Positions 580 through 57,701 of a stretch of DNA of 64,000 bases are shown here, piece after piece. The translations under genes and the position numbers were made by a program. Within the stretch, counting starts at the first letter, position 1. Every line of letters starts with the position of its first letter. The notes under the pieces were generated by a model. It was not told the origin of the DNA, ran no database searches, and saw only the letters and a list, made by a program, of their open reading frames with translations. Source of the stretch: a virus (Duplodnaviria; Caudoviricetes); IMG/VR virus record IMGVR_UViG_3300030943_000011, positions 1,739 to 65,738 of that record; one strand, given 5' to 3'.

Positions 580-3500
580 ATGATCCCACAAGATACTATC
601 CAGAAAGTACTGTCAGCCGCCAATATTACCGAAGTGGTTTCCGAATTTGTGAACCTGAAGAAGAAAGGCGTGAATTACCTGGGCGTTTGCCCTTTTCATA
701 ACGAGAAAACCCCCTCGATGATCGTCAGCCCGGCCAAGGGTATTTTTAAATGTTTTGGCTGCGGAAAGGCAGGTAATGCCATCAGCTTTGTGATGGAGCA
801 CGAAGCAATGACTTATCCTGAAGCCATTGAATACGTGGCTAAAAAATATCATGTCGAAATTCCGAAGGTTGAAATGACCGCAGATGAACTCCAGAAGCGG
901 AGTGAGCGCGATACGATGTTTACAATGAACCGTGTAGCAGCTACCTTTTATGCTGACAACCTGAAGAACCACGGACAGGCTATTAATTATCTGAAAGACC
1001 GTGATTTTGATCTGGTGGATCTGGCGAAATTCGAATTGGGAAGTATTGCCACTGCCTGGGGCGGCTTGCTGGAATACATGAGTTCGCTGGGATATAATCC
1101 GCAGCAATTGCATAAGGCCGGTCTGCTTAGCAAGGCAGAAAGCGGTAAGTACTTCGACCGGTTCCGCGACCGGGTGATGTTCCCGTATTTCGATCTGATG
1201 GGGCATGTAGTTGGCTTTACCGGACGTATACTCGACCCGAACCCGGGTAAAAACGACTCCAAATACCTCAATTCTCCGGAAACTGAATTGTTCCATAAGG
1301 GCCGGTTATTGTATGGTTTATTTCAGGCCAAAGCGGCCATTGTGAAAGAGGGAAAAGCTTACCTGGTTGAAGGCAATACCGATGTAATCCGTTTCCACAA
1401 ACAAGGACTTACCAATACCATTTGTACTTCAGGAACCGCTTTAACGGTTGAACATGCCCGATTGATCCGCCGATTTACAAGCAACCTAACCATTCTATTC
1501 GATGGCGATGGCGCAGGCTTGAAAGCAGCTGTTAAAGGCATCGATATTTGTATTGCCGAAGGCCTGAATGTGTATGTGGCCTTGCTTCCAACAGGCGAAG
1601 ATCCGGATACGTTTGCCAAAGGTAAAAGCCGCGACGAGCTGTATCGATGGATTGAAGATAACGAGAAAGATTTCATTTTGCTGATGTGCGATTTGGCTGC
1701 AAAAGACATTGAGCAAAAACCTGCCGAAAAAGGAAAGCTGATCAACGAACTGCTTGACATTGTAAAGAAAGTTCCGGATCTGATTACCCGCGAAACTTAT
1801 TTTTCTGAAGTGGCCAACAAATTCAGCCTCGACCGCAAAAAAGTTGAAGCCGGAGTATTCAAGGAAGAGAAGGCTGACGAGCTGTTTGGAATGATCGTGA
1901 ACGAAACGGCCATTCGCGAAAAGGACCAGGTATTTATTTACACCTCAAAAGAAACGGCATTTGCCAATACCGGCTCGGATCTTGAAACAAATTCGATAGT
2001 TATCTCCGGATTATTGACCGCCGTACAGATCGGAAAGCTTTCAGGTATAACTAAGAATTTAGTTTTTGCCGAAGAGTTTGACTACGAACATTCTGCATCA
2101 TGCCGGGCAGGGATGGAAGTATCTCCTGAAGAACTTATTAAAATTCAGCGTCAGGTCAAGCAAATGAAATTTCTGGCCGAGAACGGATTTGCAGTTTCGT
2201 TAAATTGTGGTGACCGATATGGAAATGATCAGGAATATGTATCGTTTTCGACCTTTTATTTTGACTATCTGGCCGAAAGTATCAAACCATATGATCCGGA
2301 TTCGAAGAAAGAAGCGGTAGAAGCAGCTGCCGAATTCCTGAGTAAGCTCGACAACACGACTATATCAATTAAAACAGCAGAGATTGCCAAGCGTTTTGGC
2401 CTGTCGAAAGCCGATTTTGCGCAGGTGCTGAAACCCTTCCTGAGTAAGGTAAAAAATAAGGTGCAGCAGCGTAACGAGGAAATAATGATCGATGATGAGC
2501 ATTATGTTTTTTCGATCGAGAAACTTCCCGAGTATGTCGATCAGAAGTTCTTTAATAAGTACAACCATTTTGCAGCCCAGAATAAAGACGGCAAAAAGAT
2601 CTTTTATGTGTTTGCCACCGAACATGGCACCCTGACCAAGGTCGGTAACTTCTACATGGAACCCCAGTTTCAGGTATTCTCAGACGATCCGCTTAAGAAT
2701 AAACGAATCTGCAAGCTGAACCATGCCGATTTGCGATCGTCGAAATACGTGGAGATCCCGAGTAACGAAATGATTGAGTTTGGAGCATTTAAAAAGTTCC
2801 TGTTTCGTCAGGGTCCTTACCTGCTCCGGAATGCCAAAGTATTTCATCTGGATACCATTCTCGACTCCATCGCGCTTCAGTTCCCTGTAGCCTACGAACT
2901 AACCATTTTCGGTCAGCAGAACGAAGACTTTTATACATTTAGCAATGCCGCGCTGATCGATGGGAATATTAAGTACATGGACGAGCTGGGACTGATCGAG
3001 CATGAGAACACCACCTTTTATTCGCCCTCGATATCAATTATTTATAAGGACGTCAGGAAAGATGAAGATCAGTTTGCCCTCGACCGTTTCTTTATTTACC
3101 GCGAAAACAAAAACGTACATTTCAAGGAATGGGCTGCCCTGGTACGCGAAGTGTATAAATACAACGATAACGGCTGCTGGACGGTACTCATGGCCATTAT
3201 GTGCGCCTTCCGGAGCGACATATTTAAGATTGACAGGCTATTCACCACCTTGTTTTTTATCGGCCCTACAGAGTGCGGAAAATCGCAATTGGCACAATCG
3301 ATACGAGCATTATACATTCATCCTGATGCGCCAATGTTTAACCTGAATTCCGGAACTGATGCCGCATTTTTCACCATGCTCCAGCGTTACCGCGATGCAC
3401 CGGTAGTGATGGAAGAGTATAACGATCAGCAGATATCGGATATTAAATTTCAGGGTTTGAAAGCCAGTATCTATGATGGTGAAGGTAAAACCAAGCGGCA

Positions 3501-4515
3501 AGGCGCACAGGGAACAGCGCTCGACGTTAGCCAGGTGAATGCGGTGCCGATATTGTTGGGACAGGAAGCTCCTGAACGTGATGATGCTTCGCTGGCCAAC
3601 CGTTGCGTATTATGCCCGGTACCTAAAAAGGAACTGTGGAGCGACAACGAAGTCGCAAATTTCCAACTCCTTAAACGATGGGAGAAAGAAGGACTTACAG
3701 AGATACTGGTTGAAGTATTGAAATGCAGGCCAATTGTAAGAGATCACTACCAAAACAAGCTGCGCATCGTGCAAAAGGAACTCCGTAAAGATTTGACCGA
3801 CGACCATTCAGTATTTCAAACCCGTGTATTAAATACGGTATCATTGTTTCTGGCCATGGTGAAGTTGTTCGAAGAGCATGTTCCCGGATTGGAATTGCCA
3901 TTCACTTACAAGGAGTTTTATCAGATTGCCCGGAAGAAGCTGATCCACCAGAGCGAAAGCATTACCAGCTCCAACCGTCTGGCCGTGTTCTTCGATACGT
4001 TTGTGCAACTCACCGAAGATACCCGTAACGGACTGATACGTGGTAAGGAATTTAAAATTGAATTGCTCGATGAAATTACCGTACGCGAAGGGCAGAAGAA
4101 CAGCAGCCTGAAGACTTTCGACGATGGGCCAAAGAAAGTATTGTTTGTAAGGCTCGAAGTGATTCACCCGAAATACCGCGACCGTGTGGGTATTCAGGAA
4201 CATTTGAAAATGAACAACCTCCAAAACTATCTGAAAGATCATCCGGCCTATATCGGAGCAGTAAAGCATAGCACATTCACCTGGCAGAACGAACACCGCG
4301 AACTGGCTGACGATAGCAGCGGCAGGGTAATATCTACCATGTTCGAAGAATCGAAACGCACCAGCGCCATTGCATTGGACTACGAGAAGTTGGGTATTGA
4401 TTTGGGTAGTTCAAGTCAGATGGAGGGAGGAAAGCCAGCATCGCCGGAACAACAGGCCGTCAGTTTGCAACTGCAGATGTATCCGAATGGAAAAGGCGAT
4501 GGATTGCCATACTGA
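580..4515 (+). CDS. DnaG-type primase fused to C-terminal P-loop NTPase/helicase-like domain
   Basis: CHC2 zinc finger (CPFHNEKTPS...CFGC), KYLNSPET, Toprim (VEGNTDV, FDGDGAG, DPD), then Walker A GPTECGKS and Walker B VVMEE; 1311 aa. Confidence 0.92.
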   Translation: MIPQDTIQKVLSAANITEVVSEFVNLKKKGVNYLGVCPFHNEKTPSMIVSPAKGIFKCFGCGKAGNAISFVMEHEAMTYPEAIEYVAKKYHVEIPKVEMTADELQKRSERDTMFTMNRVAATFYADNLKNHGQAINYLKDRDFDLVDLAKFELGSIATAWGGLLEYMSSLGYNPQQLHKAGLLSKAESGKYFDRFRDRVMFPYFDLMGHVVGFTGRILDPNPGKNDSKYLNSPETELFHKGRLLYGLFQAKAAIVKEGKAYLVEGNTDVIRFHKQGLTNTICTSGTALTVEHARLIRRFTSNLTILFDGDGAGLKAAVKGIDICIAEGLNVYVALLPTGEDPDTFAKGKSRDELYRWIEDNEKDFILLMCDLAAKDIEQKPAEKGKLINELLDIVKKVPDLITRETYFSEVANKFSLDRKKVEAGVFKEEKADELFGMIVNETAIREKDQVFIYTSKETAFANTGSDLETNSIVISGLLTAVQIGKLSGITKNLVFAEEFDYEHSASCRAGMEVSPEELIKIQRQVKQMKFLAENGFAVSLNCGDRYGNDQEYVSFSTFYFDYLAESIKPYDPDSKKEAVEAAAEFLSKLDNTTISIKTAEIAKRFGLSKADFAQVLKPFLSKVKNKVQQRNEEIMIDDEHYVFSIEKLPEYVDQKFFNKYNHFAAQNKDGKKIFYVFATEHGTLTKVGNFYMEPQFQVFSDDPLKNKRICKLNHADLRSSKYVEIPSNEMIEFGAFKKFLFRQGPYLLRNAKVFHLDTILDSIALQFPVAYELTIFGQQNEDFYTFSNAALIDGNIKYMDELGLIEHENTTFYSPSISIIYKDVRKDEDQFALDRFFIYRENKNVHFKEWAALVREVYKYNDNGCWTVLMAIMCAFRSDIFKIDRLFTTLFFIGPTECGKSQLAQSIRALYIHPDAPMFNLNSGTDAAFFTMLQRYRDAPVVMEEYNDQQISDIKFQGLKASIYDGEGKTKRQGAQGTALDVSQVNAVPILLGQEAPERDDASLANRCVLCPVPKKELWSDNEVANFQLLKRWEKEGLTEILVEVLKCRPIVRDHYQNKLRIVQKELRKDLTDDHSVFQTRVLNTVSLFLAMVKLFEEHVPGLELPFTYKEFYQIARKKLIHQSESITSSNRLAVFFDTFVQLTEDTRNGLIRGKEFKIELLDEITVREGQKNSSLKTFDDGPKKVLFVRLEVIHPKYRDRVGIQEHLKMNNLQNYLKDHPAYIGAVKHSTFTWQNEHRELADDSSGRVISTMFEESKRTSAIALDYEKLGIDLGSSSQMEGGKPASPEQQAVSLQLQMYPNGKGDGLPY

Positions 4516-4597
4516 AGCCGGACATTTTCATAATCAGACCGAAGGAAAACTAAAGGAGAAAAAAATAATAAAAAAAGCAACTGACAGGCAAAAGGGT

Positions 4598-5120
4598 GTT
4601 CCCGCGTTCCCGCGTTCCCGCACCCCGCGCCCCACGCTCTCAAAAAACCAGAGTAAAACGATTTTGCAAAACTCATGCCATTGAAAACCAAGCCGATAAA
4701 GTATGATAATAATGATAAAAAAAGTAATAATCTCTCTCTGTAAGTTGCGGGAACGATGGGTCACGCTGGGTCACGCTCTAAAAATTACTAATTTTTGGGT
4801 CACGCTGGGTCACGGTGGGACGGACGTTTTTAGCCGTGCCCCAACTTTTAATAAAAATAAGGTATTGAAAATTAATGTGTTAATCCGTAGCGGTTAGTCG
4901 TGGGAACGCGGGACGGAGAAATGGCAAAAAAAGGCCTTCTGAAAAAATAATTAATTTTTTTGCTCCAAAAACACCAAAAAACCGCCTACATATCTATTAA
5001 ATTTTAATAATCAATCAATTTTTTGAATCGAACAATATTAAAAAATGTTCAAAAAATTAGAAAAGTGATAAAAAGTAAACTAAAAAACTATTTAACAATT
5101 TTTAAAAACCAATAAATAAC
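4598..5120. promoter_or_regulatory. Putative replication origin (iterons plus AT-rich tract)
   Basis: GTTCCCGC x3 (4598-4621) with inverted copies near 4747 and 4902; TGGGTCACG x4 (4757-4776, 4796-4814); very AT-rich 4940-5120; directly after primase-helicase. Confidence 0.65.
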
Positions 5121-5220
5121 CCATGGGAAAAGAAATAAATTATGATTTTTTGGTAGATGAAATTATGGCTTACCAATTATCGAAGGAGTACAAACTTTTA
5201 AATTCATTAACACAATCGAT

Positions 5221-5499
5221 ATGGAAAAAGAAATCAAAATAGCAGCCAAACTCTACGAATGCAGAGATACTGCCAAACGTTTTTTCCGCGAAGAATATGC
5301 CGAAAGATTGAAGCCTTACATCCACATCATTAAAGAAGTAATGAAAGCCAATCAATTAGATGAACTGGAGGCTATTCTCAGGATCAGTAAAACCGAAACA
5401 TACCAAGAAGACGGAATGGTGCAACTATTGTTTATGGCTGCTGCAGTGGAAATGATGGAACCATCTGAAGAATTTTTAAACCAAACTAAAGATCAATAA
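5221..5499 (+). CDS. Hypothetical phage protein
   Basis: 92-aa ORF in tight operon spacing. Confidence 0.7.
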   Translation: MEKEIKIAAKLYECRDTAKRFFREEYAERLKPYIHIIKEVMKANQLDELEAILRISKTETYQEDGMVQLLFMAAAVEMMEPSEEFLNQTKDQ

Positions 5500-5500
5500 A

Positions 5501-5881
5501 ATGAACACACAATTTGGAGAATCATTAACAGGCGATTTCGAGGAAAGAACCTGGACGTTCGAAATGCCTGAAGACTTTACCGTTAAATCCGGAGAGTTTG
5601 CGATCGTACCAAAAGCTGAATATGAAGCATTGATTGAAAAACCAAGCTTTAACGGCGAATTGATTTTAACGCTGGAGAGCAAACGAGATTGGGTCCGTAA
5701 GGTTCCTAATTATCTTCCGGAAAAAACAAGGGCTGAACGACTGATTTGGCTCGATGCAAATAATAATAGCCTCACCATTGGCGAAGACTTTACATCTGCC
5801 GAAGAAATGAAATCATATCCTGTAAGGGTTTATCGGGTTACCAGAGTTACTGAAGCCGCGGAGAAAGTTAGAAATAAATAA
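5501..5881 (+). CDS. Hypothetical phage protein
   Basis: 126-aa ORF starting 1 bp after previous stop. Confidence 0.7.
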   Translation: MNTQFGESLTGDFEERTWTFEMPEDFTVKSGEFAIVPKAEYEALIEKPSFNGELILTLESKRDWVRKVPNYLPEKTRAERLIWLDANNNSLTIGEDFTSAEEMKSYPVRVYRVTRVTEAAEKVRNK

Positions 5882-6341: not shown

Positions 6342-6477
6342 TAACATCCAAAGCTATACGCAGGGCAGGTTACGAAGCGATTCACTTTCCTGTCCGCCAA
6401 GTAGCTGATACGGGCTGCAAAGCTCGAAACCCGATGCTACCTGACTTGCCGGATAGCTGAAGTTAACTGCCAGGGCT
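6342..6477. repeat. attC-like site 1 (family A, array-distal)
   Basis: TAAC 6342; arms agctatacgcagggcaggt / acctgacttgccggatagct; GTTAACTGCCAGGGCT from 6462; near-identical to site 3. Confidence 0.85.
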
Positions 6478-6608
6478 TCATTTTGTATCAATTGTTACAA
6501 ACAAGTAAAATAATTACGAAATATCGAAAAATAATTGTAAAAAAGCTTGCATGATATTACTATATATCGTATCTTTACTTCATCAAACAATCACAAATAC
6601 AAAACATC

Positions 6609-6902
6609 ATGGCAACTTTAGAAATCGGACAAACAGGAAAATTAGGAAATGAAATTTTAACAGTAGTTTCTATTTCTGAACCAACTTTTAAGTGTGACAA
6701 CGGCAAAATGTACATGATTGCAACTGCAAAATGGATGACTGAAGGAATTGAAATAGCAGCTCCAAAGGCAAAGAAAGCAAGAAAATACAACGCAGCCCCC
6801 GAAGATTATTTAACAGATATGACAAGAGAAGAAGCTGACAGAGCTGAAGCATACATGGCAAATGCAAAATTCAGACAAGCAGGTAGCTCATTAAGAAAAT
6901 AA
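6609..6902 (+). CDS. Cassette 1 hypothetical protein (paralog of 11039-11332)
   Basis: 97 aa, near-identical to second copy. Confidence 0.85.
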   Translation: MATLEIGQTGKLGNEILTVVSISEPTFKCDNGKMYMIATAKWMTEGIEIAAPKAKKARKYNAAPEDYLTDMTREEADRAEAYMANAKFRQAGSSLRK

Positions 6903-6909
6903 TAAAAAT

Positions 6910-8025
6910 ATGAATATAGCTTTAATTGACAATGATCTACTAATGAGAGATAATCATAATTTCCCCAACTTGGCAATTATGAAACTATCTGCATTTCATA
7001 AAAACAAAGGAGATGTCGTAGAAATAGCTACTTTTAATGAAATAAACCCTTTAGCGCTCTTTAAAAAAGAATACGATAAGATTTATATTTCAAAAGCTTT
7101 TACCGAAACACCAACGCCTTCATTTGTTTATAATTTACCAAATGTAAAGATTGGTGGCACTGGATTTTATTTTGATAAAGCAGAACCGTTGCCTTATGAA
7201 ATAGAACACACAAAACCTGATTACGATGCTTATAATTCAGCTTATAGAATTATAAAAGACACAATGTTTTATACTGATTATTCAATTGGCTATACTACTA
7301 GAGGATGCTTTAGACATTGCTTATTTTGTGTAAACATTAATAGTAATAAAGTTAAAGTACACAGTCATATTGATGAGTTTTATGATTCTTCAAGAAAAAA
7401 AATAGTTTTACTGGATGATAATGTTTTAGGATTACCAAACAATGAGCTTTTTAAAATATTTGATAAGTTTCAGGAAATAAATAAACCAATTAATTACAAA
7501 CAAGGACTCGATATCCGCTTGCTTTCAAAAGAACGAATTGATAGGTTATTTAGGTTAAAATATGATGGAGGAAAAGGCGGGTTTACTTATTATTTTGCAT
7601 TTGATTTATGGGAAAATAAATCCAAAATTGAAGAAAATTTAAAAATGTTTTCAGAAATGTATTTTGAAAGAAAGCCTGATGTAAAATGGTAAGAACGAAA
7701 TTGTATTGTTTTTGCGGGTTTAACCCAAATAATGAAAAATCTGAAAACTACTGGTTAACCGATTTGGAAATACTTTTTAAACGATTTGAAATAATATTTA
7801 GATATAAGGCCGCCCCTTATGTAATGAAGCATAAAGATTATAAAGAAAGTCCCTTTTTTTTACGTTTATGATGAAGTTGCAAACTATATTAATTCAATAA
7901 ATGGAACTTGTTTATCTATGAGCTTTAATGAATATTTGGATACAGCTTATAAAAACACAGTCAAAACACGTCAATTTAGAGATAAATACCCACAATTTAA
8001 AATATTATTTAACACTAAATTATAA
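6910..8025 (+). pseudogene. Radical SAM protein, broken by two apparent frameshifts
   Basis: FPNLAIMKLS N-terminus, CxxxCxxC (GCFRHCLFC), LLDDN, QGLDIRL; coding continues in other frames at ~7686 (A4 run) and ~7861 (T8 run) to a stop at 8025. Confidence 0.7.
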
Positions 8026-8030
8026 AAGAA

Positions 8031-8276
8031 ATGAAAACTTACTCATTGATCAAAACAAAGGCTGGCGAACGCAAAGGAACTGAAAATTCAAATTTTATTG
8101 GTGAAAATGAGAATGATCCTAAAATGTTGGCTGAAGTGAAAACTTACCTAACTGAATGGCTGAATAGTTATACAAGCATTTCGGATGAAGAAATTGCCGA
8201 TTTGTTTTCTGCCTTCGCTGGCAGTTTTTCTTATGACGTTTGGAGCTTTGAATTAATCGAAGAAAATGAAAATTAA
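8031..8276 (+). CDS. Cassette 1 hypothetical acidic protein (paralog of 11363-11611)
   Basis: 81 aa, conserved with second copy, overlaps the HTH gene. Confidence 0.8.
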   Translation: MKTYSLIKTKAGERKGTENSNFIGENENDPKMLAEVKTYLTEWLNSYTSISDEEIADLFSAFAGSFSYDVWSFELIEENEN

Positions 8277-8463
8277 CGAAGCTATCAAGGCTGCAAGAAT
8301 TGAGCAAAATATAACTCAAAAAGAACTTGCCGAAAAAATTGAAGTTCGCAAAGCCACAATTTCAGAGTTCGAGAGCGGTAAACATGCTCTCGGCTCTGAC
8401 AAACTCGAAGCGATAATGAACGCTTTAAATCTGACATTTTCAAAATACACGGACGCAGATTAG
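8266..8463 (+). CDS. XRE-family HTH regulator (cassette 1)
   Basis: IKAARIEQNITQKELAEKIEVRKATISEFESGK is a classical HTH_3 pattern. Confidence 0.9.
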   Translation: MKINEAIKAARIEQNITQKELAEKIEVRKATISEFESGKHALGSDKLEAIMNALNLTFSKYTDAD

Positions 8464-8609
8464 CCTTGCAGTTAACGCTCCCGCCAATACACGCAGTTGG
8501 GGATTTGAAAGATAATTTGTCAAACATAAATAAAACTTAAAAAATGAATGAACAAACGAAAACCACCGAAACCCCAATTGACGGGTATTTGGCTGTTATA
8601 ACCAGTTTT
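8462..8609. repeat. attC-like site 2 (family B, holds start codon of next gene)
   Basis: AGCCTTGCAGTTAAC 8462-8476; arms gccaatacacgcagttgggg / ccccaattgacgggtatttggc; GTTATAACCAGTTTT 8595-8609. Confidence 0.85.
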
Positions 8610-8801
8610 TCAGCCTGTCCACATTGCGGAAGCACGTATGGTTATTATAGCCGAGTCAAAATATCTGGCACGGTTGATTATCAATGTGATTTTAACGGCA
8701 ATGGCGAAAATACCAATATCGCAGATGGTTTTAATTACACAACAATCAGCAAAACTTACAGATGTATCGAGTGTCGAAAGATAATCTGTCAGATACATTA
8801 A
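8544..8801 (+). CDS. Cassette 2 zinc-ribbon protein
   Basis: CPHC...CIEC; ATG lies in loop of site 2, stop abuts site 3. Confidence 0.7.
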   Translation: MNEQTKTTETPIDGYLAVITSFSACPHCGSTYGYYSRVKISGTVDYQCDFNGNGENTNIADGFNYTTISKTYRCIECRKIICQIH

Positions 8802-8946
8802 AATTGGTTATAACGGTGGAAGCTATACGCAGGGCAGGATGCGAAGCGATTCACTTTCCTGTCCGAGAACTGGCTGATACGGGCTGCAACGCTCGAAAAC
8901 TACGGCTGCCTGACTTGCCGGATAGCTGAAGTTAGCAACTAGGCGT
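8800..8946. repeat. attC-like site 3 (family A)
   Basis: AAAATTGGTTATAAC 8800-8814; arms agctatacgcagggcagg / cctgacttgccggatagct; GTTAGCAACTAGGCGT 8931-8946. Confidence 0.87.
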
Positions 8947-8972
8947 TCATTCATCAACTTAAATCTAAAAAT

Positions 8973-9554
8973 ATGCCTTGGTACGATTTAAACGAAAAAG
9001 TAGAAACGAAAAAGGATTATTTGCAAAGAGTCAAATATGATGAGATTATTTGCAAGAAAACTAAAAATTTCATTGACATTATTGGAGATGATTTATCCCC
9101 AAATGTTCAATATCGAATGGTAACGGAACAATCTTTTAATGCAATAGTCGTAATTGAATATTTGCTTAAAAGATATGAGTTAGTTGAGATTTATATTGCT
9201 GTTTACCGAATGAATCAATTGTCAGTCAACAAACTAAAATCAATCATTGATGCCGGAAATATTAAATGTTCGATTTTGATTTCTTCGTTTTTTCGTGAAA
9301 ACAAACGATATGAACGCTGGGCCGAAGAACTGATTATGTATGCCGAAAAAAGAGAAAATGTAGAAGTTTCTTTTGCTGTAAATCACGCGAAAGTTTTTAT
9401 TGCAAAAACAAAGGATTTGAAATTTATAGTTTTTGAAGGGAGCGGAAATTTATCCGATAATGCCAGGATAGAGCAATATTTGATTGAGGATAATGAAACA
9501 ACATACAATTTTCATAAAGAATGGATTACTAACACTTTAAATTTAAAAAAATGA
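8973..9554 (+). CDS. Cassette 3 phospholipase D-superfamily (HKD-like nuclease) protein
   Basis: NHAKVFI...EGSGNLSDN...EQ fits HxK...GSxN; homologous to 21101-21697. Confidence 0.7.
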   Translation: MPWYDLNEKVETKKDYLQRVKYDEIICKKTKNFIDIIGDDLSPNVQYRMVTEQSFNAIVVIEYLLKRYELVEIYIAVYRMNQLSVNKLKSIIDAGNIKCSILISSFFRENKRYERWAEELIMYAEKRENVEVSFAVNHAKVFIAKTKDLKFIVFEGSGNLSDNARIEQYLIEDNETTYNFHKEWITNTLNLKK

Positions 9555-9865
9555 AAATCGAAAAAGAAAACGAAGAGCAGATTATCAATTTCGGAGTATT
9601 TACATATGATGCTTTGAAAATGGCCAATATTCTAAATCTTGAAGAAGCTGAAATTGCAAATGAAATGAGAGATAAAACATCTGATTTTTATAAGCTATAT
9701 CAAAAAGGCTGCGATATGGCAGACTATGTAATTGATTTAAAATTATTCGAAATGGCAAAGTCTGGCGATATAAAAGCTCTTGACAAATTAGATGATCGAA
9801 AAGAGATTCGAAATGCAGAAACAAGAGAAAGATTTAAAGAAATAGCAAGACAGAAAAGAGAATAA
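9551..9865 (+). CDS. Cassette 3 small helical protein (paralog of 21666-21956)
   Basis: 4-bp overlap with PLD-like gene; shares NEEQ..., MA.x.L.L.E, YxKG..., A..G pattern with 21666. Confidence 0.7.
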   Translation: MKIEKENEEQIINFGVFTYDALKMANILNLEEAEIANEMRDKTSDFYKLYQKGCDMADYVIDLKLFEMAKSGDIKALDKLDDRKEIRNAETRERFKEIARQKRE

Positions 9866-9903
9866 AATTCAAGAAGATAAAGATCACCATCAACGAAGCA
9901 CTT

Positions 9904-10049
9904 ACGCTTGTTGCTAACGGTGTAGCATACACGAAGTTGGGGAATAGAAAGTAATAACCTGTCAAATTTAACGAATGAAAATAGATACAGATACAGTAAC
10001 AACCTGCACCGATACCCCAATTGCGGGTATGCGAAGTTATGCACAGCTT
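9904..10049. repeat. attC-like site 4 (family B, holds start codon of methyltransferase)
   Basis: ACGCTTGTTGCTAAC 9904-9918; arms gcatacacgaagttgggg / ccccaattgcgggtatgc; GTTATGCACAGCTT 10036-10049. Confidence 0.87.
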
Positions 10050-10772
10050 TCACATGGATCTCTGTTCAGCGGGATTGAAGGTTTTGGATTAGGTGCTGCA
10101 ATGGCTGGAATCAAAACGGTTTTTAGTTGCGAATTTGAAGATTTTCAAACAAGTATTATTAAAAAGAATTTTGGAGATGAACACGAAATCAATAGAGATA
10201 TTAGAACGTATAAAAACCCGCCATTTGTTGACATCATTAGCGGTGGATTCCCTTGCCAGGACATCAGTATTGCTGGAAAAGGTATCGGAATTGGAGGTGA
10301 AAGAAGCGGCTTATGGTCTGAAATGTACCGTATTTGTGGGATCGTTAGACCAAAGTACATTATCATTGAAAACAGCCCAATGCTCCTTGTTCGAGGATTT
10401 GAGCAAGTCCTTTGCGACCTTTCCAAAATCGGGTATTATGCAGAATGGCAATGTTTATCTGGCACCGACTTTGGAATACAACAGGGTAGAGAGCGATTAT
10501 ATTGTATTGCCTACACCAACGAAATCGACAGCAAAAGGAGCTGCACGGAATCGGTATTTCGGAAGCCCTACTTACAGGGGAAATATACACGAGTATATCC
10601 GGGATGGAGAACAAGACAGTCTTTACCCTCACCCCGATTTGCTGGAAAATCTAATGTCATTCCCGATAGGATGGACAGAACTCAGTCAATAGGTAATGCG
10701 GTTCAACCGATAATTTCTCATTATCTTTTTGAATGTATCAAAATGCACTACGCCAAATTAAGTTGTGCATAA
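9975..10772 (+). CDS. Cassette 4 DNA cytosine-5 methyltransferase, main (alpha) chain
   Basis: Motif I SLFSGIEG, IV GGFPCQDIS, VI IENS, VIII QGRERL, X IGNAV; stop codon is the TAA of site 5 TAAC. Confidence 0.92.
   Translation: MKIDTDTVTTCTDTPIAGMRSYAQLSHGSLFSGIEGFGLGAAMAGIKTVFSCEFEDFQTSIIKKNFGDEHEINRDIRTYKNPPFVDIISGGFPCQDISIAGKGIGIGGERSGLWSEMYRICGIVRPKYIIIENSPMLLVRGFEQVLCDLSKIGYYAEWQCLSGTDFGIQQGRERLYCIAYTNEIDSKRSCTESVFRKPYLQGKYTRVYPGWRTRQSLPSPRFAGKSNVIPDRMDRTQSIGNAVQPIISHYLFECIKMHYAKLSCA
10093..10692 (+). CDS. Nested alternative-frame polypeptide, putative methyltransferase beta chain carrying motif IX
   Basis: 199 open codons inside the MTase gene ending LPTPT...LLENLMSFPIGWT (motif IX-like), which the main frame lacks; true start uncertain. 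Confidence 0.7.
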   Translation: MLQWLESKRFLVANLKIFKQVLLKRILEMNTKSIEILERIKTRHLLTSLAVDSLARTSVLLEKVSELEVKEAAYGLKCTVFVGSLDQSTLSLKTAQCSLFEDLSKSFATFPKSGIMQNGNVYLAPTLEYNRVESDYIVLPTPTKSTAKGAARNRYFGSPTYRGNIHEYIRDGEQDSLYPHPDLLENLMSFPIGWTELSQ

Positions 10773-10907
10773 CGGTCTGCAAGTACACGTCAGGGCTGGA
10801 CTACGGGCTGAAACCTTTCTTGTCAGAGCAAAAGACCGGGCGAATAAATGCAGACCGCACCGCACTGCTGCCAGACTTGCGGGTACTTTGCTGTTAACTG
10901 CTGGGCT
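10760..10907. repeat. attC-like site 5
   Basis: AAGTTGTGCATAAC 10760-10773; arms gcaagtacacgtcagggctgg / ccagacttgcgggtactttgc; GTTAACTGCTGGGCT 10893-10907. Confidence 0.85.
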
Positions 10908-11038
10908 TCGTTTTGTATCAATTGTTACAAACAAGTAAAATAATTACGAAATATCGAAAAATAATTGCAAAAAAGCTTGCATGATATTACTATATATCGT
11001 ATCTTTACTTCATCAAACAATCACAAATACAAAACATC

Positions 11039-11332
11039 ATGGCAACTTTAGAAATCGGACAAAAAGGAAAATTAGGAAATGAAGTTTTAACAGTAGTTTC
11101 TTTTGATAACATGACTTTCAAATGCGACAACGGCAAAATGTACATGATTGCAACTGCAAAATGGATGACTGAAGGAATTGAAACAGCAGCCCCAAAAGCA
11201 AAGAAAGTAAGAAAATACAACGCAGCTCCCGAAAATTATTTATCAGAAATGACAAGAGAAGAATCAGATAGAGCTGAAGCATACATGGCAAATGCAAAAT
11301 TCAGACAAGCAGGTAGCTCATTAAGAAAATAA
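11039..11332 (+). CDS. Cassette 5 hypothetical protein (paralog of 6609-6902)
   Basis: Near-identical duplicate. Confidence 0.85.
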   Translation: MATLEIGQKGKLGNEVLTVVSFDNMTFKCDNGKMYMIATAKWMTEGIETAAPKAKKVRKYNAAPENYLSEMTREESDRAEAYMANAKFRQAGSSLRK

Positions 11333-11362
11333 TAACCATTATAACCATTAAAACCATTTAAA

Positions 11363-11611
11363 ATGAAAACTTACTTATTGATCAAAACAAAAGCTGGCGA
11401 ACGCAAAGGAACTGAAATTTCAAATTTCATTGGTGAAAATGAAAATGATCCTAAAATGTTGAAGGAAACTGAAACCTACCTTCGCGCCTGGTTGGATAGT
11501 TACAACAACAGCCTGACACTTGAAGAGATTGACAGACTGTTTGAAAATTTTGAAGGTAGTTTCTCTTATGACGTTTGGAATTTTGAATTAATCGAAGAAA
11601 ATGAAAATTAA
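11363..11611 (+). CDS. Cassette 5 hypothetical acidic protein (paralog of 8031-8276)
   Basis: Duplicate with diverged middle. Confidence 0.8.
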   Translation: MKTYLLIKTKAGERKGTEISNFIGENENDPKMLKETETYLRAWLDSYNNSLTLEEIDRLFENFEGSFSYDVWNFELIEENEN

Positions 11612-11798
11612 CGAAGCCATCAAGGCTGCAAGAATTGAGCAAAATATAACTCAAAAAGAACTTGCCGAAAAAATTGAAGTTCGCAAAGCCACAATTTCAG
11701 AGTTCGAGAGCGGAAAACATGCTCTCGGCTCTGACAAGCTCGAAGCGATAATGAACGCTTTAAATCTGACTTTTTCAAAATGCACGGACGCAAATTAG
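11601..11798 (+). CDS. XRE-family HTH regulator (cassette 5)
   Basis: Identical to 8266-8463 product except at the C-terminal tail. Confidence 0.9.
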   Translation: MKINEAIKAARIEQNITQKELAEKIEVRKATISEFESGKHALGSDKLEAIMNALNLTFSKCTDAN

Positions 11799-11862
11799 CC
11801 TTGCAGTTAACTACTATATGTATTTTATTCTCACAACAAACTAACATTTAAAACTTTACAGC
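11797..11862. other. attI-like terminal half-site
   Basis: AGCCTTGCAGTTAAC (cassette 5 end) followed by non-hairpin AT-rich sequence, 51 bp before the recombinase ATG. Confidence 0.6.
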
Positions 11863-12696
11863 ATGAACATCGGAAACTATCAACGGCAACTTTCCGACTG
11901 GATGAAGTACAAAAAATACTCTCCGGAAAGCATAAGCAATTACGTTTCTTGTATCGGTAAGTTTCTCAAATATTTTGAAGATGAAGCAACAAAACCGAGT
12001 GAGATTTCTGCTGTTCAGATTAAAAAGTTTCTATCAACAAAACAGCAAGTAAATACTCATAAGGCTTATTTGTGTGCAATAAAGTTGTTTTACGAAAAGG
12101 TTGGACATCAACCGAGAAAGCTCGATAATGTTGAATATCCACGATCTGAAAAGAAATTGCCAATTGTTTTGAGTCAGGATGAAATACAAAAAATGTTTGA
12201 TGTTTGCGAAAACCTTAAACACCGCACTATTTTAGCATTGATTTACTCCTGTGGGTTGCGTGTTTCTGAAGTAATAAATCTGCAATGGAGTCACATCGAC
12301 TGCAGCCGAATGATAATCAACATTATTTGCGCAAAAGGGCGCAAAGACCGACAAATTGCATTACCCGAAACCATAATACCACTACTGAAAAGTTATTACA
12401 AAGAATATCACACTGAAAAATATGTTTTGAATGGTCAGTTTGGATTAAAATATTCAGACAGAAGCGTACTAGAGGTAATGAAGCAATTAGCCGCAAAATC
12501 AAAAATTAAAAAGCGAGTTTACACTCATCTTATCAGGCATAGCACATTTACGCACATGGTTGAGCAGGGCACAGACATAAACCTCATTCAGCGAATTGCA
12601 GGCCACAACAATGTTAAAACAACGATGCTCTATTGTCATCTTTCTGATAATCTTATCAGCAGAATACAATCACCAATTTCTAACATTAGAATTTGA
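11863..12696 (+). CDS. Tyrosine recombinase (XerD/IntI-like, 277 aa), candidate cassette integrase
   Basis: N-terminal SAM-like region; GLRVSE, AKGRKDR, HLIRH, AGH, TMLY = complete R-K-H-R-H-Y set. Confidence 0.93.
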   Translation: MNIGNYQRQLSDWMKYKKYSPESISNYVSCIGKFLKYFEDEATKPSEISAVQIKKFLSTKQQVNTHKAYLCAIKLFYEKVGHQPRKLDNVEYPRSEKKLPIVLSQDEIQKMFDVCENLKHRTILALIYSCGLRVSEVINLQWSHIDCSRMIINIICAKGRKDRQIALPETIIPLLKSYYKEYHTEKYVLNGQFGLKYSDRSVLEVMKQLAAKSKIKKRVYTHLIRHSTFTHMVEQGTDINLIQRIAGHNNVKTTMLYCHLSDNLISRIQSPISNIRI

Positions 12697-53464: not shown

Positions 53465-54724
53465 TTATATACAAAATTCAAATTCTTCCAAAACAATAGT
53501 ACAGGCAAATCCGGGTGGATCAGGAAACTTAGTTCGCACATGTTCCGACCGCTCCCCGAAATGCCTGCGGATATACCGGTAGGTTGAAGCAATATCGGTA
53601 TGACCCAGTTGATTCATTATCTCGACGATAGTAGCGCCACTCTCAAGTAATTTTCCGGCGCCGGTATGTTTGAATGAATACCACTTGTACAAATCGGTTA
53701 ATCCAAGCTGCTCCCGATACTTATTAAACCGGGTCCTCAATGTATTGTACCCGATTGAAAATTTACCCGGACGTCCAAACCGGCTGATTAGGTACATATC
53801 CTTTCCATAGTGAATTACGCCCTGTTCAACCAGTATTTTGTACATCTGAGCCGGAATATCAACCGTTCGTTCTTTCCGTTTTTTGGCTACGTTTTTAGGT
53901 ATATGTATCGTTCGTGCCGACATATTTACCTGATTAAGTTTAAGCTTAAGCAATTCGTCACCTGGCCGGATGAAACAAAAATACTGGAGCATGGCGCCAA
54001 GAAACAGTTGGGGATCTTCAGCCCTGATCATTGGAAGTATCAATTCTAAATCTTCATCCAGAAATGGAATAGCTGAGAAATCCTCACCAGGTTCCGGAAT
54101 TCCAATTCTACCCACCGGACTCTCATTGATTACTTTGCGATCGATAAGATAAGCCCAGAAGCCATCGAGCGTAATTTTATATTTTTCAACTGTTGGACCT
54201 GCCAGATGACGATCAATAATCAAGTGATCGAAAAATCTAAGAATCAGATCATGATTATATGTTGAAAGGTCATTGTCAACCAATTTTTCACGCTCGAGCC
54301 ATGACACAAACTCCCGGAGTTTACCGCGATAACTTTCGTAAGTTTTTTTTGCTTTGATGCTTTTCTGAAGGGTGACATATTCGGAGGCATAGAACCTGAC
54401 GTTCTTATTTGCCTGTCGCTTACGACCGTATACCTGAGCAGCTGTGTGATACTCCAGATCATCGACATATACCACCTGAACTGAGGAGTCATCTGTAGGA
54501 TTCCATCCCTTCAGCAGTTTTGCAGTGAGGTTATTGATTAACTCTTCACCAAACTTATACCGATCCTTTTTTGTACGGATTTGGGCAAAACCTTCCTGAT
54601 ATCGTTTCCGCACCATTTTATCAGTTCGCGGATCACGATAGCCAATCTCAACCCACCAGGGTTTTGAAAGGTCGCCGCCCTGATCAAACAGGCGCGGCGC
54701 CCTGAACAATTTCTGTCGTCTCAT
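53465..54724 (-). CDS. Phage integrase (lysogeny tyrosine recombinase)
   Basis: FIRPGDEL, AKKRK, YSFKHTGA, QLGHTD..TYRY; N-terminal arm-binding region; likely start ATG 54724. Confidence 0.9.
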   Translation of the reverse strand: MRRQKLFRAPRLFDQGGDLSKPWWVEIGYRDPRTDKMVRKRYQEGFAQIRTKKDRYKFGEELINNLTAKLLKGWNPTDDSSVQVVYVDDLEYHTAAQVYGRKRQANKNVRFYASEYVTLQKSIKAKKTYESYRGKLREFVSWLEREKLVDNDLSTYNHDLILRFFDHLIIDRHLAGPTVEKYKITLDGFWAYLIDRKVINESPVGRIGIPEPGEDFSAIPFLDEDLELILPMIRAEDPQLFLGAMLQYFCFIRPGDELLKLKLNQVNMSARTIHIPKNVAKKRKERTVDIPAQMYKILVEQGVIHYGKDMYLISRFGRPGKFSIGYNTLRTRFNKYREQLGLTDLYKWYSFKHTGAGKLLESGATIVEIMNQLGHTDIASTYRYIRRHFGERSEHVRTKFPDPPGFACTIVLEEFEFCI

Positions 54725-54763
54725 AATGTCTGAATAAAGTTCGTCCCCACGCCCAAAAAACAA

Positions 54764-54980
54764 ACACATACATAACGACATACATTTTCTTTAACGCTGA
54801 CATACACTTTTTAAACCTTAAAGCGTTGAAAATCAGCTATCTTATAAAACATCGTGGAGCTGGCGGGAGATTCAAAAACCCTTTAACCACTTCATCCTGA
54901 TGTTCTTGAAAATCGTATTATGTGTATGTTGCAAGTTTTGGTTGTATTCGTGAGTGTAGCTATAATATAATGTGTATGTC
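54764..54980. other. attP: tmRNA 3'-end core with flanking arm-type repeats
   Basis: 54854-54869 reverse complement CTCCCGCCAGCTCCAC matches typical ssrA 3' end; (G)ACATACA(C/T) copies on left, TGTGTATGT(T/C) on right. Confidence 0.75.
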
Positions 54981-54983
54981 GTT

Positions 54984-55019
54984 TGTCCTTTCCTGCATTT
55001 ACCAAAACGATTAGCATTG
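54984..55019 (+). promoter_or_regulatory. Late promoter motif copy 9
   Basis: TGTCCTTTC-N19-TAGCATTG. Confidence 0.65.
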
Positions 55020-55037
55020 TTGAAAATTTATTCAATT

Positions 55038-55199
55038 ATGAAAGCACTTAAAAATTTTGTCAACGCTATTTTTGGTAACAAATCCGAAAAAATAAGATTA
55101 AGGTCAGTTGATTTGGCTTTAAAATCAAATACGGATTCAAGCAATCTTATTAAAGTTGCTGATGGTATTTATAAGTACATCAAAAACGGTACGTTATAA
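55038..55199 (+). CDS. Small hypothetical protein
   Basis: ATG 55038 just after promoter motif. Confidence 0.55.
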   Translation: MKALKNFVNAIFGNKSEKIRLRSVDLALKSNTDSSNLIKVADGIYKYIKNGTL

Positions 55200-55403
55200 T
55201 CCAATCATCGCTTTTATTTCATCAAAACTTGCGGTCACATATTCTGTTTGCGGCCATAAGTCTTTTCCTCTCGAAAAATTCAGGGTTATTACCGATCCGT
55301 TACCGTCGCTGGATGGTTCTGGTTCAATTTTCCCAATGGTTGAAACACCAATAATAATTGGTGTTTTTTCTTTTGTAGTTAAAACAATAAATTCTTTGCT
55401 CAT
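55194..55403 (-). CDS. Small hypothetical protein (lysogenic strand)
   Basis: 69 aa with AAGGAG upstream. Confidence 0.6.
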   Translation of the reverse strand: MSKEFIVLTTKEKTPIIIGVSTIGKIEPEPSSDGNGSVITLNFSRGKDLWPQTEYVTASFDEIKAMIGL

Positions 55404-55556
55404 CTCCTTTATATTATGTGTATGTCAACTTAGGATCAATATTTTTTGCTTTTTAAAAAGGTTTAATCCTGTTTTATTTATTCTACTACTTCTATAACAC
55501 AAACTTCATCACCACCCCACCATACCAACGGAAGCTCTAATTGGTACTTTTGGAAA

Positions 55557-55943
55557 TTAGACCGCTTGTGCGATACTTGCATCCGGGGTCTCTTTTTTAT
55601 GCTCTCCCTGCAATGCTGCAATTGTTTGTTTTTGCGACTCAACTAATGCGTTGGCTCCATCAAGCTTGGCCTGTAACACTTCACATTTATTACATGGTTC
55701 ATTAGCCACATTCAATATTTCTTCTCCAACTAATATCTTTTGCTGCTTTTCTTCCTTGTCGAAGTAATAAGCTATCGTTCGGCCAAAGTAATCTGCAAGT
55801 ATTTCAACTTCATCAGGTGTCCAATTTCCATGTTTCATGCGATTGATCGCTGTAGTATATGGCAATTTTAAAATATTTGAAACGTCAATTTTGGTTAGAC
55901 TTTTAAAATTGATATCTGAAGCTATCCTATTGATATTTAACAT
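55557..55943 (-). CDS. Putative immunity repressor (HTH plus coiled coil)
   Basis: HTH-like N-terminus ending LADYFG..IAYYF; divergent from early operon. Confidence 0.7.
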   Translation of the reverse strand: MLNINRIASDINFKSLTKIDVSNILKLPYTTAINRMKHGNWTPDEVEILADYFGRTIAYYFDKEEKQQKILVGEEILNVANEPCNKCEVLQAKLDGANALVESQKQTIAALQGEHKKETPDASIAQAV

Positions 55944-56059
55944 GTATTATTTAGAATTAAAATAAATAATCATTTTTGGTTATTTTTTAACCAATATTGG
56001 TTTTTAATCAAACCAAATTTTGTACTATTGTCATATAAATATGTAATAATTATACAACT
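55944..56059. promoter_or_regulatory. Divergent promoter/operator region
   Basis: AT-rich gap with palindrome AACCAATATTGGTT (55989-56002) and further TTGGTT/AACCAA half-sites. Confidence 0.55.
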
Positions 56060-56245
56060 ATGGCAACAGCAAATAGGATGAAGTTTTTAACTCAACTGAA
56101 CGATGCCCGTTCGGCAATTGTACTGCCAAAAGAGTTAAAGAAAATTGTGAAAGCAAAAGCAAAAGAAGATAACACCAACGAATCGCAGTGGATAAAGGTT
56201 GCTATCATAGAGAAGTTGGAACGATCTGAAGTAGAAGTAGAGTAA
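56060..56245 (+). CDS. RHH-like small regulator (Cro position)
   Basis: AIVLPKELKK..K.KA....NESQWIKVAIIEKL. Confidence 0.65.
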   Translation: MATANRMKFLTQLNDARSAIVLPKELKKIVKAKAKEDNTNESQWIKVAIIEKLERSEVEVE

Positions 56246-56251
56246 AAACAC

Positions 56252-56296
56252 AAAAAACCCCGCTTAAATCTTGGCGGACTATTAGCGGGGTTTTTT
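56252..56296 (+). terminator. Intrinsic terminator/attenuator
   Basis: aaaaaaccccgct ... agcggggtttttt. Confidence 0.75.
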
Positions 56297-56307
56297 AAAT
56301 AAATCTA

Positions 56308-56865
56308 TTGGTTATGAAAGAACAACAGGTTACATCGCAAAATGTTCCGGCTGGAATTTTTTCGGGTATCGAAGCTTTTTGGCACGAAAACGAAAAGTGG
56401 GTAATTGCCAACGGAACGGTTAAACGTTTCCACGAATGCGACTCCCGAATTCAGCAACCTATATGGAAAGCATTTATGGCCGATAAACAATCGTTGGCAT
56501 ACATCGCTAAAATAGGAATCACTAAAGCTTCAGAAGTATTCGACCGCTGGTATCGCTGCGTTGTTGGCGGATTGGACCATGTTCCAGATTTCGATTTCAA
56601 GTTTACTCCCGATGCCTATAATAATATGTGCACCGACCACTCCTGCCCCCTTCGTGGTCGCTTATGCTCTCGCGCTGCTGGACTCAAAAACTACGAGGTT
56701 GAAACCATCATCGCACTGAAATCGGCCAAAAATATGGATCAGGTTGCTAATACCGTTCACGTGTCATTGCCAGCTATTAAATCGCGTGTAGCCATTATGC
56801 GCGAAAAGATGAATGTAACTACAACAGTTGGAATAATTGCCCGTGCTGCCGAATTCGGAATTTAA
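56308..56865 (+). CDS. LuxR-type HTH protein
   Basis: C-terminal QVANTVHVSLPAIKSRVAIMREKMNV. Confidence 0.7.
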   Translation: MVMKEQQVTSQNVPAGIFSGIEAFWHENEKWVIANGTVKRFHECDSRIQQPIWKAFMADKQSLAYIAKIGITKASEVFDRWYRCVVGGLDHVPDFDFKFTPDAYNNMCTDHSCPLRGRLCSRAAGLKNYEVETIIALKSAKNMDQVANTVHVSLPAIKSRVAIMREKMNVTTTVGIIARAAEFGI

Positions 56866-56883
56866 CCAATAAATACCAATACA

Positions 56884-57414
56884 ATGAAAAATTCGATTAA
56901 AAAGTTTTTAGAGTTCAACGGCAAAACCATTTATTTCGTTGCTGTTGATGGCCAGTACTGGATCGCAATTAAACCAATTTGCGAAGCTTTAAATGTGGAT
57001 TACATCCGCCAGTTTAAGAACCTGAAAGATGACAAAATTTTGGGTGCTGCGTTGTCTAATCAGACAATGCACGATGCCTCCGGAAGACTTCAGGAAATGT
57101 CTTCTTTGCCTGAATTTTTCATCTACGGATGGATATTCCAGATTCAATCTCAATCAACTGAATTGGCTGCCTATAAATGGGAATGTTACCGGGTTTTATA
57201 CGAACATTTCCACGGCGCAATCACTGGCCGTAAAGAATTACTTTCCGAAAAAGCCCGCATCCAAATCGAAATCGATAAATGTTTCAATACACTCGATCCA
57301 GAAGTTGCTCTTCGCCTCGATCGTGCCAATACTCAAATAAATAAAATTAATAAGCAACTACGAGAACTCGATGCAGATGTAATGGAGGAAGAAAAAACAT
57401 TGTTCGATTCTTAA
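56884..57414 (+). CDS. Antirepressor, P22 AR N-terminal domain
   Basis: WIAIKPICEALNVDY..Q..LK.D...GWIFQI. Confidence 0.85.
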   Translation: MKNSIKKFLEFNGKTIYFVAVDGQYWIAIKPICEALNVDYIRQFKNLKDDKILGAALSNQTMHDASGRLQEMSSLPEFFIYGWIFQIQSQSTELAAYKWECYRVLYEHFHGAITGRKELLSEKARIQIEIDKCFNTLDPEVALRLDRANTQINKINKQLRELDADVMEEEKTLFDS

Positions 57415-57519
57415 TTGATTGATGCAGTTCTGGGCCCTGCTAAACAAAACCGCCCTGTGTTACATGTATCAAATTTGCAACAACGCCCCGGTACAGTTAG
57501 GTTATTTGCCGGGGCACAC

Positions 57520-57592: not shown

Positions 57593-57701
57593 CACGGTGG
57601 ATGAAGCAATTCGGGGGTAGATCCTTATCGGTGCCCCTGTTTTTCACCTAACAAACAACAAAATTACAAATAGCGTCCCCACGCCCAAAAACAACACAGT
57701 T

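Follow-up and report, generated by a model that had tools for sequence, protein, structure and literature searches.

The stretch of DNA analysed here (the window: 64,000 nucleotides (nt), bases 1739-65738 of a 65.7-kilobase (kb) IMG/VR virus record classed as linear and as 100% complete by CheckV) carries, at positions 6342-12696 on the + strand, an array of five gene cassettes with long imperfect hairpins, followed by an attI-like site and the gene of a tyrosine recombinase of 277 amino acids (aa). With a probability of roughly 0.8, this arrangement represents an integron-type platform for cassette capture and shuffling in a tailed phage, the assignment of its hosts to Bacteroidota being part of this favoured reading. 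The original prediction, made from the sequence alone, had proposed an integron-like array, and this proposal is supported by the hairpin-bounded cassettes, their self-complementary ends, the attI-like junction, the varying cassette content beside near-identical recombinases and a circle-type contig. We infer that the 277-aa recombinase would be the catalyst, that folded single-stranded DNA would be its substrate and that the array would still be active in the phage.

In the proposed mechanism, the recombinase would recombine the folded + strand hairpin sites with each other, and such hairpin-by-hairpin exchange would excise circles of 2131, 338, 1104, 855 and 1038 base pairs (bp) or multiples of these. 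Exchange between a hairpin and the double-stranded attI-like site upstream of the recombinase gene would lead to cassette insertion, and new cassettes would thus enter next to the recombinase. Strands would be exchanged at AA|C on the + strand, giving cassettes of the form C-hairpin-GTT-genes-…AA, in which the genes lie downstream of their own hairpin and AT-rich hairpin loops provide the start codon and probably the promoter.

The cassette array and its hairpin sites

The five sites lie where they had been predicted, with AAC-to-GTT spans of 6343-6464 (122 nt), 8474-8597 (124), 8812-8933 (122), 9916-10038 (123) and 10771-10895 (125), and the AAC-to-AAC distances are exactly the five circle sizes given above, as had also been predicted. 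All share one layout: TAAC is separated by a short unpaired spacer (typically GGT…) from an imperfect inner stem (about 18-19 nt), whose loop measures about 67-70 nt, and beyond the return arm a second short spacer leads to GTTA. Two types of loop can be distinguished: sites 1 (6342-6465), 3 (8811-8934, 86% identical to site 1) and 5 (10770-10896) have GC-rich loops which pair further (type A), while sites 2 (8473-8598) and 4 (9915-10039) have AT-rich loops containing an ATG (type B). The AAC and GTT triplets are invariant in two alignments of selected sites (A2, A4). The sites agree with attC in being imperfect palindromes that have AAC/GTT triplets and R and L boxes as well as unpaired features. 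Site 1 belongs to cassette 1 and forms the distal end of the array; this end has a complete hairpin, while the end adjoining the recombinase has none.

The sequence starting at each GTT had been claimed to be complementary to the end of its own cassette, and all five of the pairs cited for this are present. Four window cassettes were scored for end pairing and reach 7-9 of a possible 13; the ends of cassette 2 are 93% complementary. This complementarity is specific, since the 30 cognate pairs of eight arrays have a mean score of 3.5, compared with -1.8 for 94 non-cognate pairs. In 17 well-matched pairs inspected by eye, a G of the outer stem faces a T at one constant position, in some cases with one bulged base before it.

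The genes between the sites had been described as unrelated, which does not hold for cassettes 1 and 5. The bodies of these two (6466-8472 and 10897-11808) are paralogous, with 92% identity between 6435-6905 and 10866-11335 and 88% between 8029-8476 and 11361-11811; cassette 1 carries in addition a 1.1-kb insert with a radical S-adenosylmethionine (radical-SAM) gene.

Conservation and covariation of the site structure

Folding of both strands of each site, as the original prediction had advised, gave a divided result: the arms do pair (as in the fold of site 1), but energy alone is not significant, and the support for the structure comes from the conserved architecture and covariation. The folding z-score is lower on the + than on the - strand for all five sites, and the minimum-energy fold of site 5 is an alternative stem. 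When the loci studied and the window were scanned independently on the basis of energy, 146 hairpins were obtained, as against 21 in shuffled sequence.

A covariance model, R1, was trained on eight sites, five from the window and three from L001, a viral contig with a recombinase 94% identical to that of the window. On the whole 65.7-kb virus record, R1 recognises exactly the five window sites and no other, all with scores of 90-109 bits (103.7, 103, 108.9, 104 and 90.2 for sites 1 to 5). When 30 sources were scanned (470 kb, both strands), 62 matches were obtained at E<=1, with 59 on the recombinase strand, and all but one of the 46 non-training matches at E<=0.01 lay upstream of the recombinase on the same strand. 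The proposed scan of relatives thus recovers the same family of sites beside related recombinases. A further 58 loci of more distant recombinase relatives (785 kb) yielded nine matches at E<=0.01.

In a model-guided alignment (A5), 81% of the cells are paired, compared with 52.7% after shuffling, although the fitting of A5 to the R1 structure inflates such pair counts somewhat towards that structure. Double changes occur in 309 cells, a number that none of 500 shuffles reaches, compared with 90 after shuffling and 26-64 in slid controls. The two inner helices are 91% and 97% paired, and one G·T pair is invariant in all 60 sequences. The structure of the sites is considered real because the slid controls are low and many types of pair occur. 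A strict sequence motif for the arms recovered the window and L001 sites only, the arm sequence being too variable; likewise, RNAalifold found no structure in a MAFFT alignment of 44 sites, in which the arms were misaligned, and the model-guided alignment was used instead.

The attI-like junction and variable cassette content

The array ends at an AAC (11809-11811) situated 51 nt ahead of the recombinase ATG. This AAC, at which cassette-specific sequence stops, opens an attI-like site (11809-11862, + strand) and is followed by TACTATATGTAT. Of the 16 loci with close recombinases, 15 have a junction motif, YAAC-N4-6-(T)ATATGTA, at a distance of about 45-55 nt ahead of the recombinase ATG, and the sequence to the left of the junction AAC is locus-specific in these loci. 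The junction is therefore, as expected of attI, a site that adjoins the integrase gene and marks the start of the array. With a recombinase gene starting 51 nt past this AAC, the element is also distinct from the clusters of attC sites that have no integrase within them (CALINs).

Comparison of cassette content among related phages, which the original prediction had singled out as a check, favours cassette turnover at this locus: the viral contig L001 shares only 11800-12692 with the window (82% nt identity; junction and recombinase), while its cassettes are entirely different. Homology of two other viral contigs (L003, L004) to the window likewise begins at 11800-11808, i.e. it comprises the junction and recombinase, and their cassettes, too, differ from those of the window.

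The recombinase

The recombinase gene (11863-12696, + strand) has an intact open reading frame (ORF), and its product contains the Pfam domains SAM_4 and Phage_integrase (PF13495, PF00589), as do IntI and Xer proteins. Residues R133, K158, H222, R225, H248 and Y257, which we take to be the catalytic set of tyrosine recombinases, are invariant in 20 relatives. The best NCBIfam matches all fall below their cut-offs: XerA_Arch scores 183 bits, the integron integrase model TIGR02249 scores 162.6 (cut-off 265, in two stretches) and PRK15417 scores 104.8 (cut-off 435). Nor is the protein an orthologue of XerC or XerD by TIGR02224 (152 bits, cut-off 335) and TIGR02225 (150.6 bits, cut-off 330). A phmmer comparison with the sequence of the Vibrio IntI4 structure (2a3v) aligned residues 10-178 with 9-180 and 202-274 with 246-319, leaving 24 residues between the two stretches in the phage protein as compared with 66 in IntI4; thus, the additional domain specific to IntI is absent from the 277-aa recombinase. 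None of the proteins of five array-bearing Bacteroidota genomes reaches the IntI cut-off; TIGR02249 is matched best there by the array-linked genes, and only over its positions 2-179 and about 238-315.

A maximum-likelihood tree was built from 44 proteins, comprising 26 short recombinases, eight full-length IntI matches of the same phylum and ten XerC/D-type paralogues from the five Bacteroidota genomes. The short recombinases and canonical IntI form one group (support 100/99), apart from the ten XerC/D-type paralogues, and canonical IntI appears as one long-branched clade among unresolved short lineages. The earlier designation of the enzyme as a non-IntI recombinase is therefore half right: it lacks the IntI insertion and falls below the IntI cut-offs, but it groups with canonical IntI as against XerC/D. 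No close relative was found among INPHARED phages, the best match being at 32% identity in Polaribacter phage Leef_1.

Gene polarity and expression

Polarity was assessed from the longest ORF between neighbouring sites and its strand relative to the site. In the window, the viral contigs L001, L003 and L004, and the locus L036, this ORF lies on the site strand and points toward the recombinase in all 27 cassettes, while in L049, L054, L073, L115 and L116 it occupies the other strand in 37 of 40 cassettes. The chromosomal arrays are thus organised as in classical integrons, genes preceding their site and reading in the direction away from attI, and the four viral-contig arrays and L036 are reversed. 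Many chromosomal arrays have a short recombinase at the same array end, on the strand opposite to the sites, for example L115 (G022:C12:209979-228147), which has 22 near-identical sites of 124-128 nt in 20 kb. In this inverted arrangement they differ from the phage, in which recombinase and sites share a strand.

The classical cassette, a promoterless ORF followed by attC and read from the promoter Pc, is therefore not what is seen in the window and the four related arrays. Because of the reversed polarity, the cassette genes cannot use a promoter at attI. It fits with this polarity that start codons are found in the loops and that the methylase of cassette 4 starts inside site 4: in 19 of 54 sites, an ATG within the site opens a + strand ORF that continues beyond GTTA for 30 codons or more, as against two of 54 on the - strand. 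The AT-rich loops thus supply a start codon, and a recurring TAAnnT(G/A)TCAAA-like stretch suggests that they probably contain a promoter as well.

These signals also suit an explanation in which the cassette-like pattern would be a side effect of hairpins that act as RNA expression elements or as promoter/terminator modules between phage genes. It is the sense strand that is structured, its conserved G·T pairs would also fit an RNA structure as G·U pairs, and start codons lie in the loops of those 19 sites. However, the chromosomal relatives carry their sites antisense to the genes in 37 of 40 cassettes, and a scan of the window at Rfam gathering thresholds matched one tRNA and nothing else. 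Such an explanation would also leave unaccounted for the invariant AAC and GTT, the complementarity of cassette ends, an exact AAC-to-AAC duplication and a circle-type contig (both described below), and the fixed junction at the recombinase. It is thus considered extremely improbable.

Probable exchange point, candidate circle and mobility

End complementarity cannot fix the point of exchange, because the ends are complementary whichever of the neighbouring hairpins belongs to the cassette. A relative of the array in a bin labelled Melioribacteraceae (L073) is informative here: positions 4584-5724 and 6684-7824 are 99.9% identical over 1141 nt, with unlike flanks on both sides. The duplicated unit begins at the AAC of one hairpin and ends at the AAC(GGT) of the following one; it includes the left hairpin, while the right hairpins differ. 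The putative exchange point is placed at AA|C on the + strand by the hairpin-less array end at the recombinase, by this duplication, which shows it in the relative, and by the ORFs that start in hairpins. Exchange on the GTT side would split the genes that start inside hairpins.

A candidate for an excised product was encountered while seeking relatives of the cassette-3 protein. L092 is a viral contig of 2,049 nt, placed by IMG/VR in the class of direct terminal repeats, in which positions 1-141 exactly equal 1909-2049, giving a unit of 1,908 nt. It consists only of two cassettes (868 and 1,040 nt) with two R1 sites (82 and 55 bits). One of the two is a homologue of cassette 3 (79% identity in nt, 85% in aa) with the same 15-16 nt at both ends; its neighbours are different, and its hairpin shares only the basal part with that of the window. 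The contig resembles an excised two-cassette circle and may have been caught as such in a virome.

In contigs of peat metagenome runs, the phage sequence turns into unlike sequence at site edges, namely at 9915 (X2, X3), 8877 (X2, X4, X5) and 8921 (X4, X5), which are to be taken as hints only; at 9915, in two runs, the end of another cassette abuts site 4.

One and the same hairpin, more than 90% identical, occurs between unrelated flanks at L049 6720-6845, L073 4583-4708 and 6683-6808, and L036 8805-8930; the three bins concerned bear the labels Flavobacteriales, Melioribacteraceae and Bacteroidales. It seems that hairpins are exchanged, moved or homogenised apart from the cassette bodies.

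Several observations weigh against the integron-type reading. In whole-site DNA folding, the z-scores range from -0.2 to -2.2 for the + strand and from +0.25 to -1.06 for the - strand; this stability does not exceed that of shuffled sequence and, taken alone, is neutral evidence. One L001 cassette has non-complementary ends, and cassettes 1 and 5 have different left hairpins in spite of their paralogy, which is not predicted by a rule in which the hairpin travels with the body. L092 could be an assembly loop derived from a tandem arrangement rather than a free circle. Junctions were sought in the contigs of four metagenome runs holding the phage and no joints were found, with the proviso that Logan contigs drop rare forms. 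The recombinase tree is midpoint-rooted and carries long-branch warnings. To these are added the RNA-compatible G·T pairs and the fitting of A5 to its model, described above.

Some of these points would suit a fossil array, built by the cassette mechanism in the past and no longer recombining, in which the recombinase has another role or none. The lack of joints in the four runs is in keeping with this, as are the identity of only 88-92% between cassettes 1 and 5, which indicates an old duplication, the splitting of the cassette-1 radical-SAM gene into three ORFs, and the 18% nt divergence of the L001 recombinase module, which comes with no cassette in common. Against this stand the intact recombinase ORF with its invariant residues, the high R1 scores of all five sites and, as hints, the peat-run contigs in which other DNA abuts site edges. 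A fossil array is therefore judged unlikely.

Distribution and relation to canonical integrons

R1 was applied at E<=1e-4 to 151 genomes drawn evenly from the phylum of Flagellimonas ochracea (G006, the genome of L054), and matches were found in 49 of them (48 on a repeat with the same sample). An equal number of genomes from the phylum of G162 (the genome of L019, titled as a Legionella bin) gave none. In at least 13 genomes, an R1 match lies on the same contig as, and within 22 kb of, a short recombinase with the split TIGR02249 match.

Canonical integron integrases are equally frequent in the Flagellimonas phylum, as 50 of the 151 genomes contain a full-length TIGR02249 match over the cut-off (for example, L111-L114 and L126-L129). 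This is unexpected in view of a survey that, in its available text, reports nearly only In0 for Bacteroidetes (PMC9024848), and it is far above published complete-genome surveys as they are described there. Both an R1 match and canonical IntI occur in at least 20 genomes, compared with about 16 expected by chance, among the matches listed. Among these matches, no R1 match lies within 100 kb of canonical IntI, and four 20-kb regions around canonical IntI genes gave no R1 match at E<=1. In one of these regions (L113), a separate series of AAC…GTT hairpins, each about 115 nt long, lies upstream of the IntI gene. Because R1 sites are absent around canonical IntI and abundant elsewhere (20 in the 20-kb chromosomal array L115 and eight in L116), two systems with different sites appear to coexist.

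The frequency of canonical IntI lends some credit to an explanation in which the phage sites are borrowed, i.e. attC sites of host integrons (a CALIN) that are recombined by the canonical IntI of the host, the 277-aa enzyme being an unrelated Xer-type recombinase with a task such as dimer resolution. It is also in line with this that integrase-less attC clusters have been reported in phages, with IntI1 recombining five of the six tested, according to the available text of PMC9892861. Nevertheless, R1 sites track the short recombinase (the 45 of 46 matches upstream on its strand) and not canonical IntI, around which R1 finds nothing in the four regions scanned and L113 has hairpins of its own; co-occurrence in the same genomes scarcely departs from chance among the matches listed, and conservation of the attI-like motif goes with the short recombinase gene. 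Borrowed sites are thus regarded as very unlikely.

A bin titled Bifidobacteriaceae (L050, G161) shares its phylum assignment in the genome collection with the Flagellimonas genome, and several other bins with close recombinase relatives are titled Woesebacteria, Saccharimonadales, Legionella and Calothrix. Bins with such non-Bacteroidota titles are possibly mis-binned phage or Bacteroidota contigs.

Comparison with known systems

With integrons, especially the sedentary chromosomal ones, the array shares the imperfect palindromes with invariant AAC…GTT, an outer stem formed from the two ends of one cassette, an inner stem that has mismatches at fixed places, and an unpaired spacer. Furthermore, an attI-like site adjoins the array next to the recombinase gene's 5' end, the SAM_4 and Phage_integrase domains are common to both, the enzyme groups with IntI in the tree, and the chromosomal relatives of the phage array show the classical polarity (37 of 40). 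It differs in that the phage recombinase lacks the IntI insertion (24 as compared with 66 residues) and scores below the curated IntI cut-offs. The sites are mostly about 118-130 nt long with loops of about 62-74 nt, though a few in relatives are shorter with loops of 22-42 nt, and the outer stem has 14-15 bp rather than seven. In the viral-contig arrays and L036, genes follow the hairpin in the direction of the recombinase (27 of 27) and start codons lie in hairpins. In addition, R1 detected no sites beside canonical IntI genes of the same phylum in the four regions scanned.

Xer-dependent elements provide a second comparison. The attP of CTX-type phages is a folded single-stranded hairpin, and both CTX and the pdif modules of Acinetobacter plasmids use the XerC/D of the host and dif-like sites of 28 bp. 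As in the present system, small Xer-type recombinases without the IntI insertion move DNA modules; here, however, the enzyme is encoded by the element and stands apart from the XerC/D paralogues in the tree, and the sites form arrays of 120-nt hairpins.

Closer still are the phage CALINs of Qi et al. (2023; PMC9892861), whose available text reports that 17 phages, Polaribacter phage P12002L among them, carry integrase-less attC clusters; methyltransferase cassettes are described there, as is recombination by IntI1. In both cases hairpin sites bound cassettes, often with DNA methyltransferases. In that text the clusters have no integrase nearby and were tested with the bacterial IntI1, whereas the present array has a dedicated recombinase and an attI-like site. 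On P12002L, R1 found no convincing site, only one partial match (E 0.057). With regard to the enzyme, Smyshlyaev et al. (2021; PMC8138268) state, in the available text, that integrons need the insertion in order to function, although it is not fully conserved in an 'integron-like' subgroup of simple tyrosine recombinases. Insertion-less members, such as the recombinase considered here, are thereby implied, although the same text describes no sites, arrays or phage carriage for them.

A full-text literature search, with subscription journals outside its range, found no description of hairpin-bounded cassette arrays with an insertion-less recombinase in Bacteroidota or phages. The system follows the logic of integrons but departs from it in three respects: its enzyme is related to IntI and yet fails the test that defines IntI, its sites form a distinct family, and in phages the cassette polarity is reversed, with expression signals inside the sites.

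Cassette genes and phage context

The cassettes carry small accessory genes, all on the + strand. Cassette 1 contains an ORF of 97 aa (6609-6902), the radical-SAM gene, an ORF of 81 aa (8031-8276) and a regulator (8266-8463; Pfam HTH_3, 1.1e-14). The radical-SAM gene is split over 6910-7692, 7686-7871 and 7928-8083 (phrog_9298, 1.3e-42, profile positions 1-207 of 305), which is probably due to frameshifts within 6910-8083. A similar gene follows the methylase in the gut phage contig MT837905 (L090). Cassette 2 (unit 8474-8811) encodes an 85-aa zinc-ribbon protein (8544-8801; phrog_9107, 2e-10), the ATG of which, at 8544, lies inside site 2; no relatives of this protein were found among viral contigs. 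Cassette 3 holds a gene for an endonuclease-like protein of 193 aa (8973-9554) and an ORF of 104 aa (9551-9865), with matches of the cassette to phrog_20533 (1.2e-16) and to phrog_16945, annotated 'endonuclease' (3.3e-6). This gene pair also occurs outside cassettes, as in contig L091 (82.6% nt identity), which has no R1 site. Cassette 5, nearest to the recombinase, has three ORFs (11039-11332, 11363-11611 and 11601-11798), the last of them with a helix-turn-helix.

Cassette 4 encodes a C-5 cytosine DNA methyltransferase (9975-10772; Pfam PF00145, 6.7e-38), with its ATG inside site 4 (9975 or 10029) and its stop codon within the TAAC of site 5. The stretch 10051-10744 is 84% identical in nt to the human faecal virome contigs MT835900 and MT837905 and about 70% identical to Bacteroides phages, and the homology starts just past the terminal repeat of the cassette. 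In the gut phage contigs, the methylase has its own start codon and no hairpins, i.e. the gene exists outside cassettes. Its identity between a phage from a peat metagenome and faecal virome contigs suggests a recent spread of the gene across habitats.

The remainder of the window is that of a tailed phage, with genes for a primase (580-4515), a head protease, a tape-measure protein, tail fibre proteins and a tRNA-Met, and nearly all of its long ORFs lie on the + strand. A second integrase of 438 aa, of phage type, is encoded at 53465-54781 on the - strand, about 2.7 kb from the tRNA-Met gene (region 53465-57593). It is presumably the phage's own integration module, distinct from the cassette recombinase.

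Implications for integrons and phages

The IntI-specific insertion is the textbook link to integron recombination of folded single strands. A widespread and apparently functional system without it makes the need for the insertion, and the origin of integron integrases from Xer-like enzymes, directly testable. In a wider proposal, for which the odds are put at about even, the array would belong to a second large integron-type branch, whose recombinases lost the IntI insertion or were always without it; this branch would occur in roughly a third of the sampled genomes of the Flagellimonas phylum and in their phages. Phages would place the hairpin before the gene as a source of promoter and start codon, and could plug in anti-defence genes (e.g. 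methyltransferases) along their own transcription; canonical IntI may then derive from within the insertion-less group.

A gene-capture device would thus sit in phages of a major phylum in which, as far as the available text of PMC9024848 goes, surveys report almost no integrons. Phages would gain a way to swap small accessory genes, represented here by a cytosine methyltransferase, an endonuclease-like protein, regulators and a radical-SAM enzyme, and the start codons carried by the hairpins would constitute a new solution for cassette expression.

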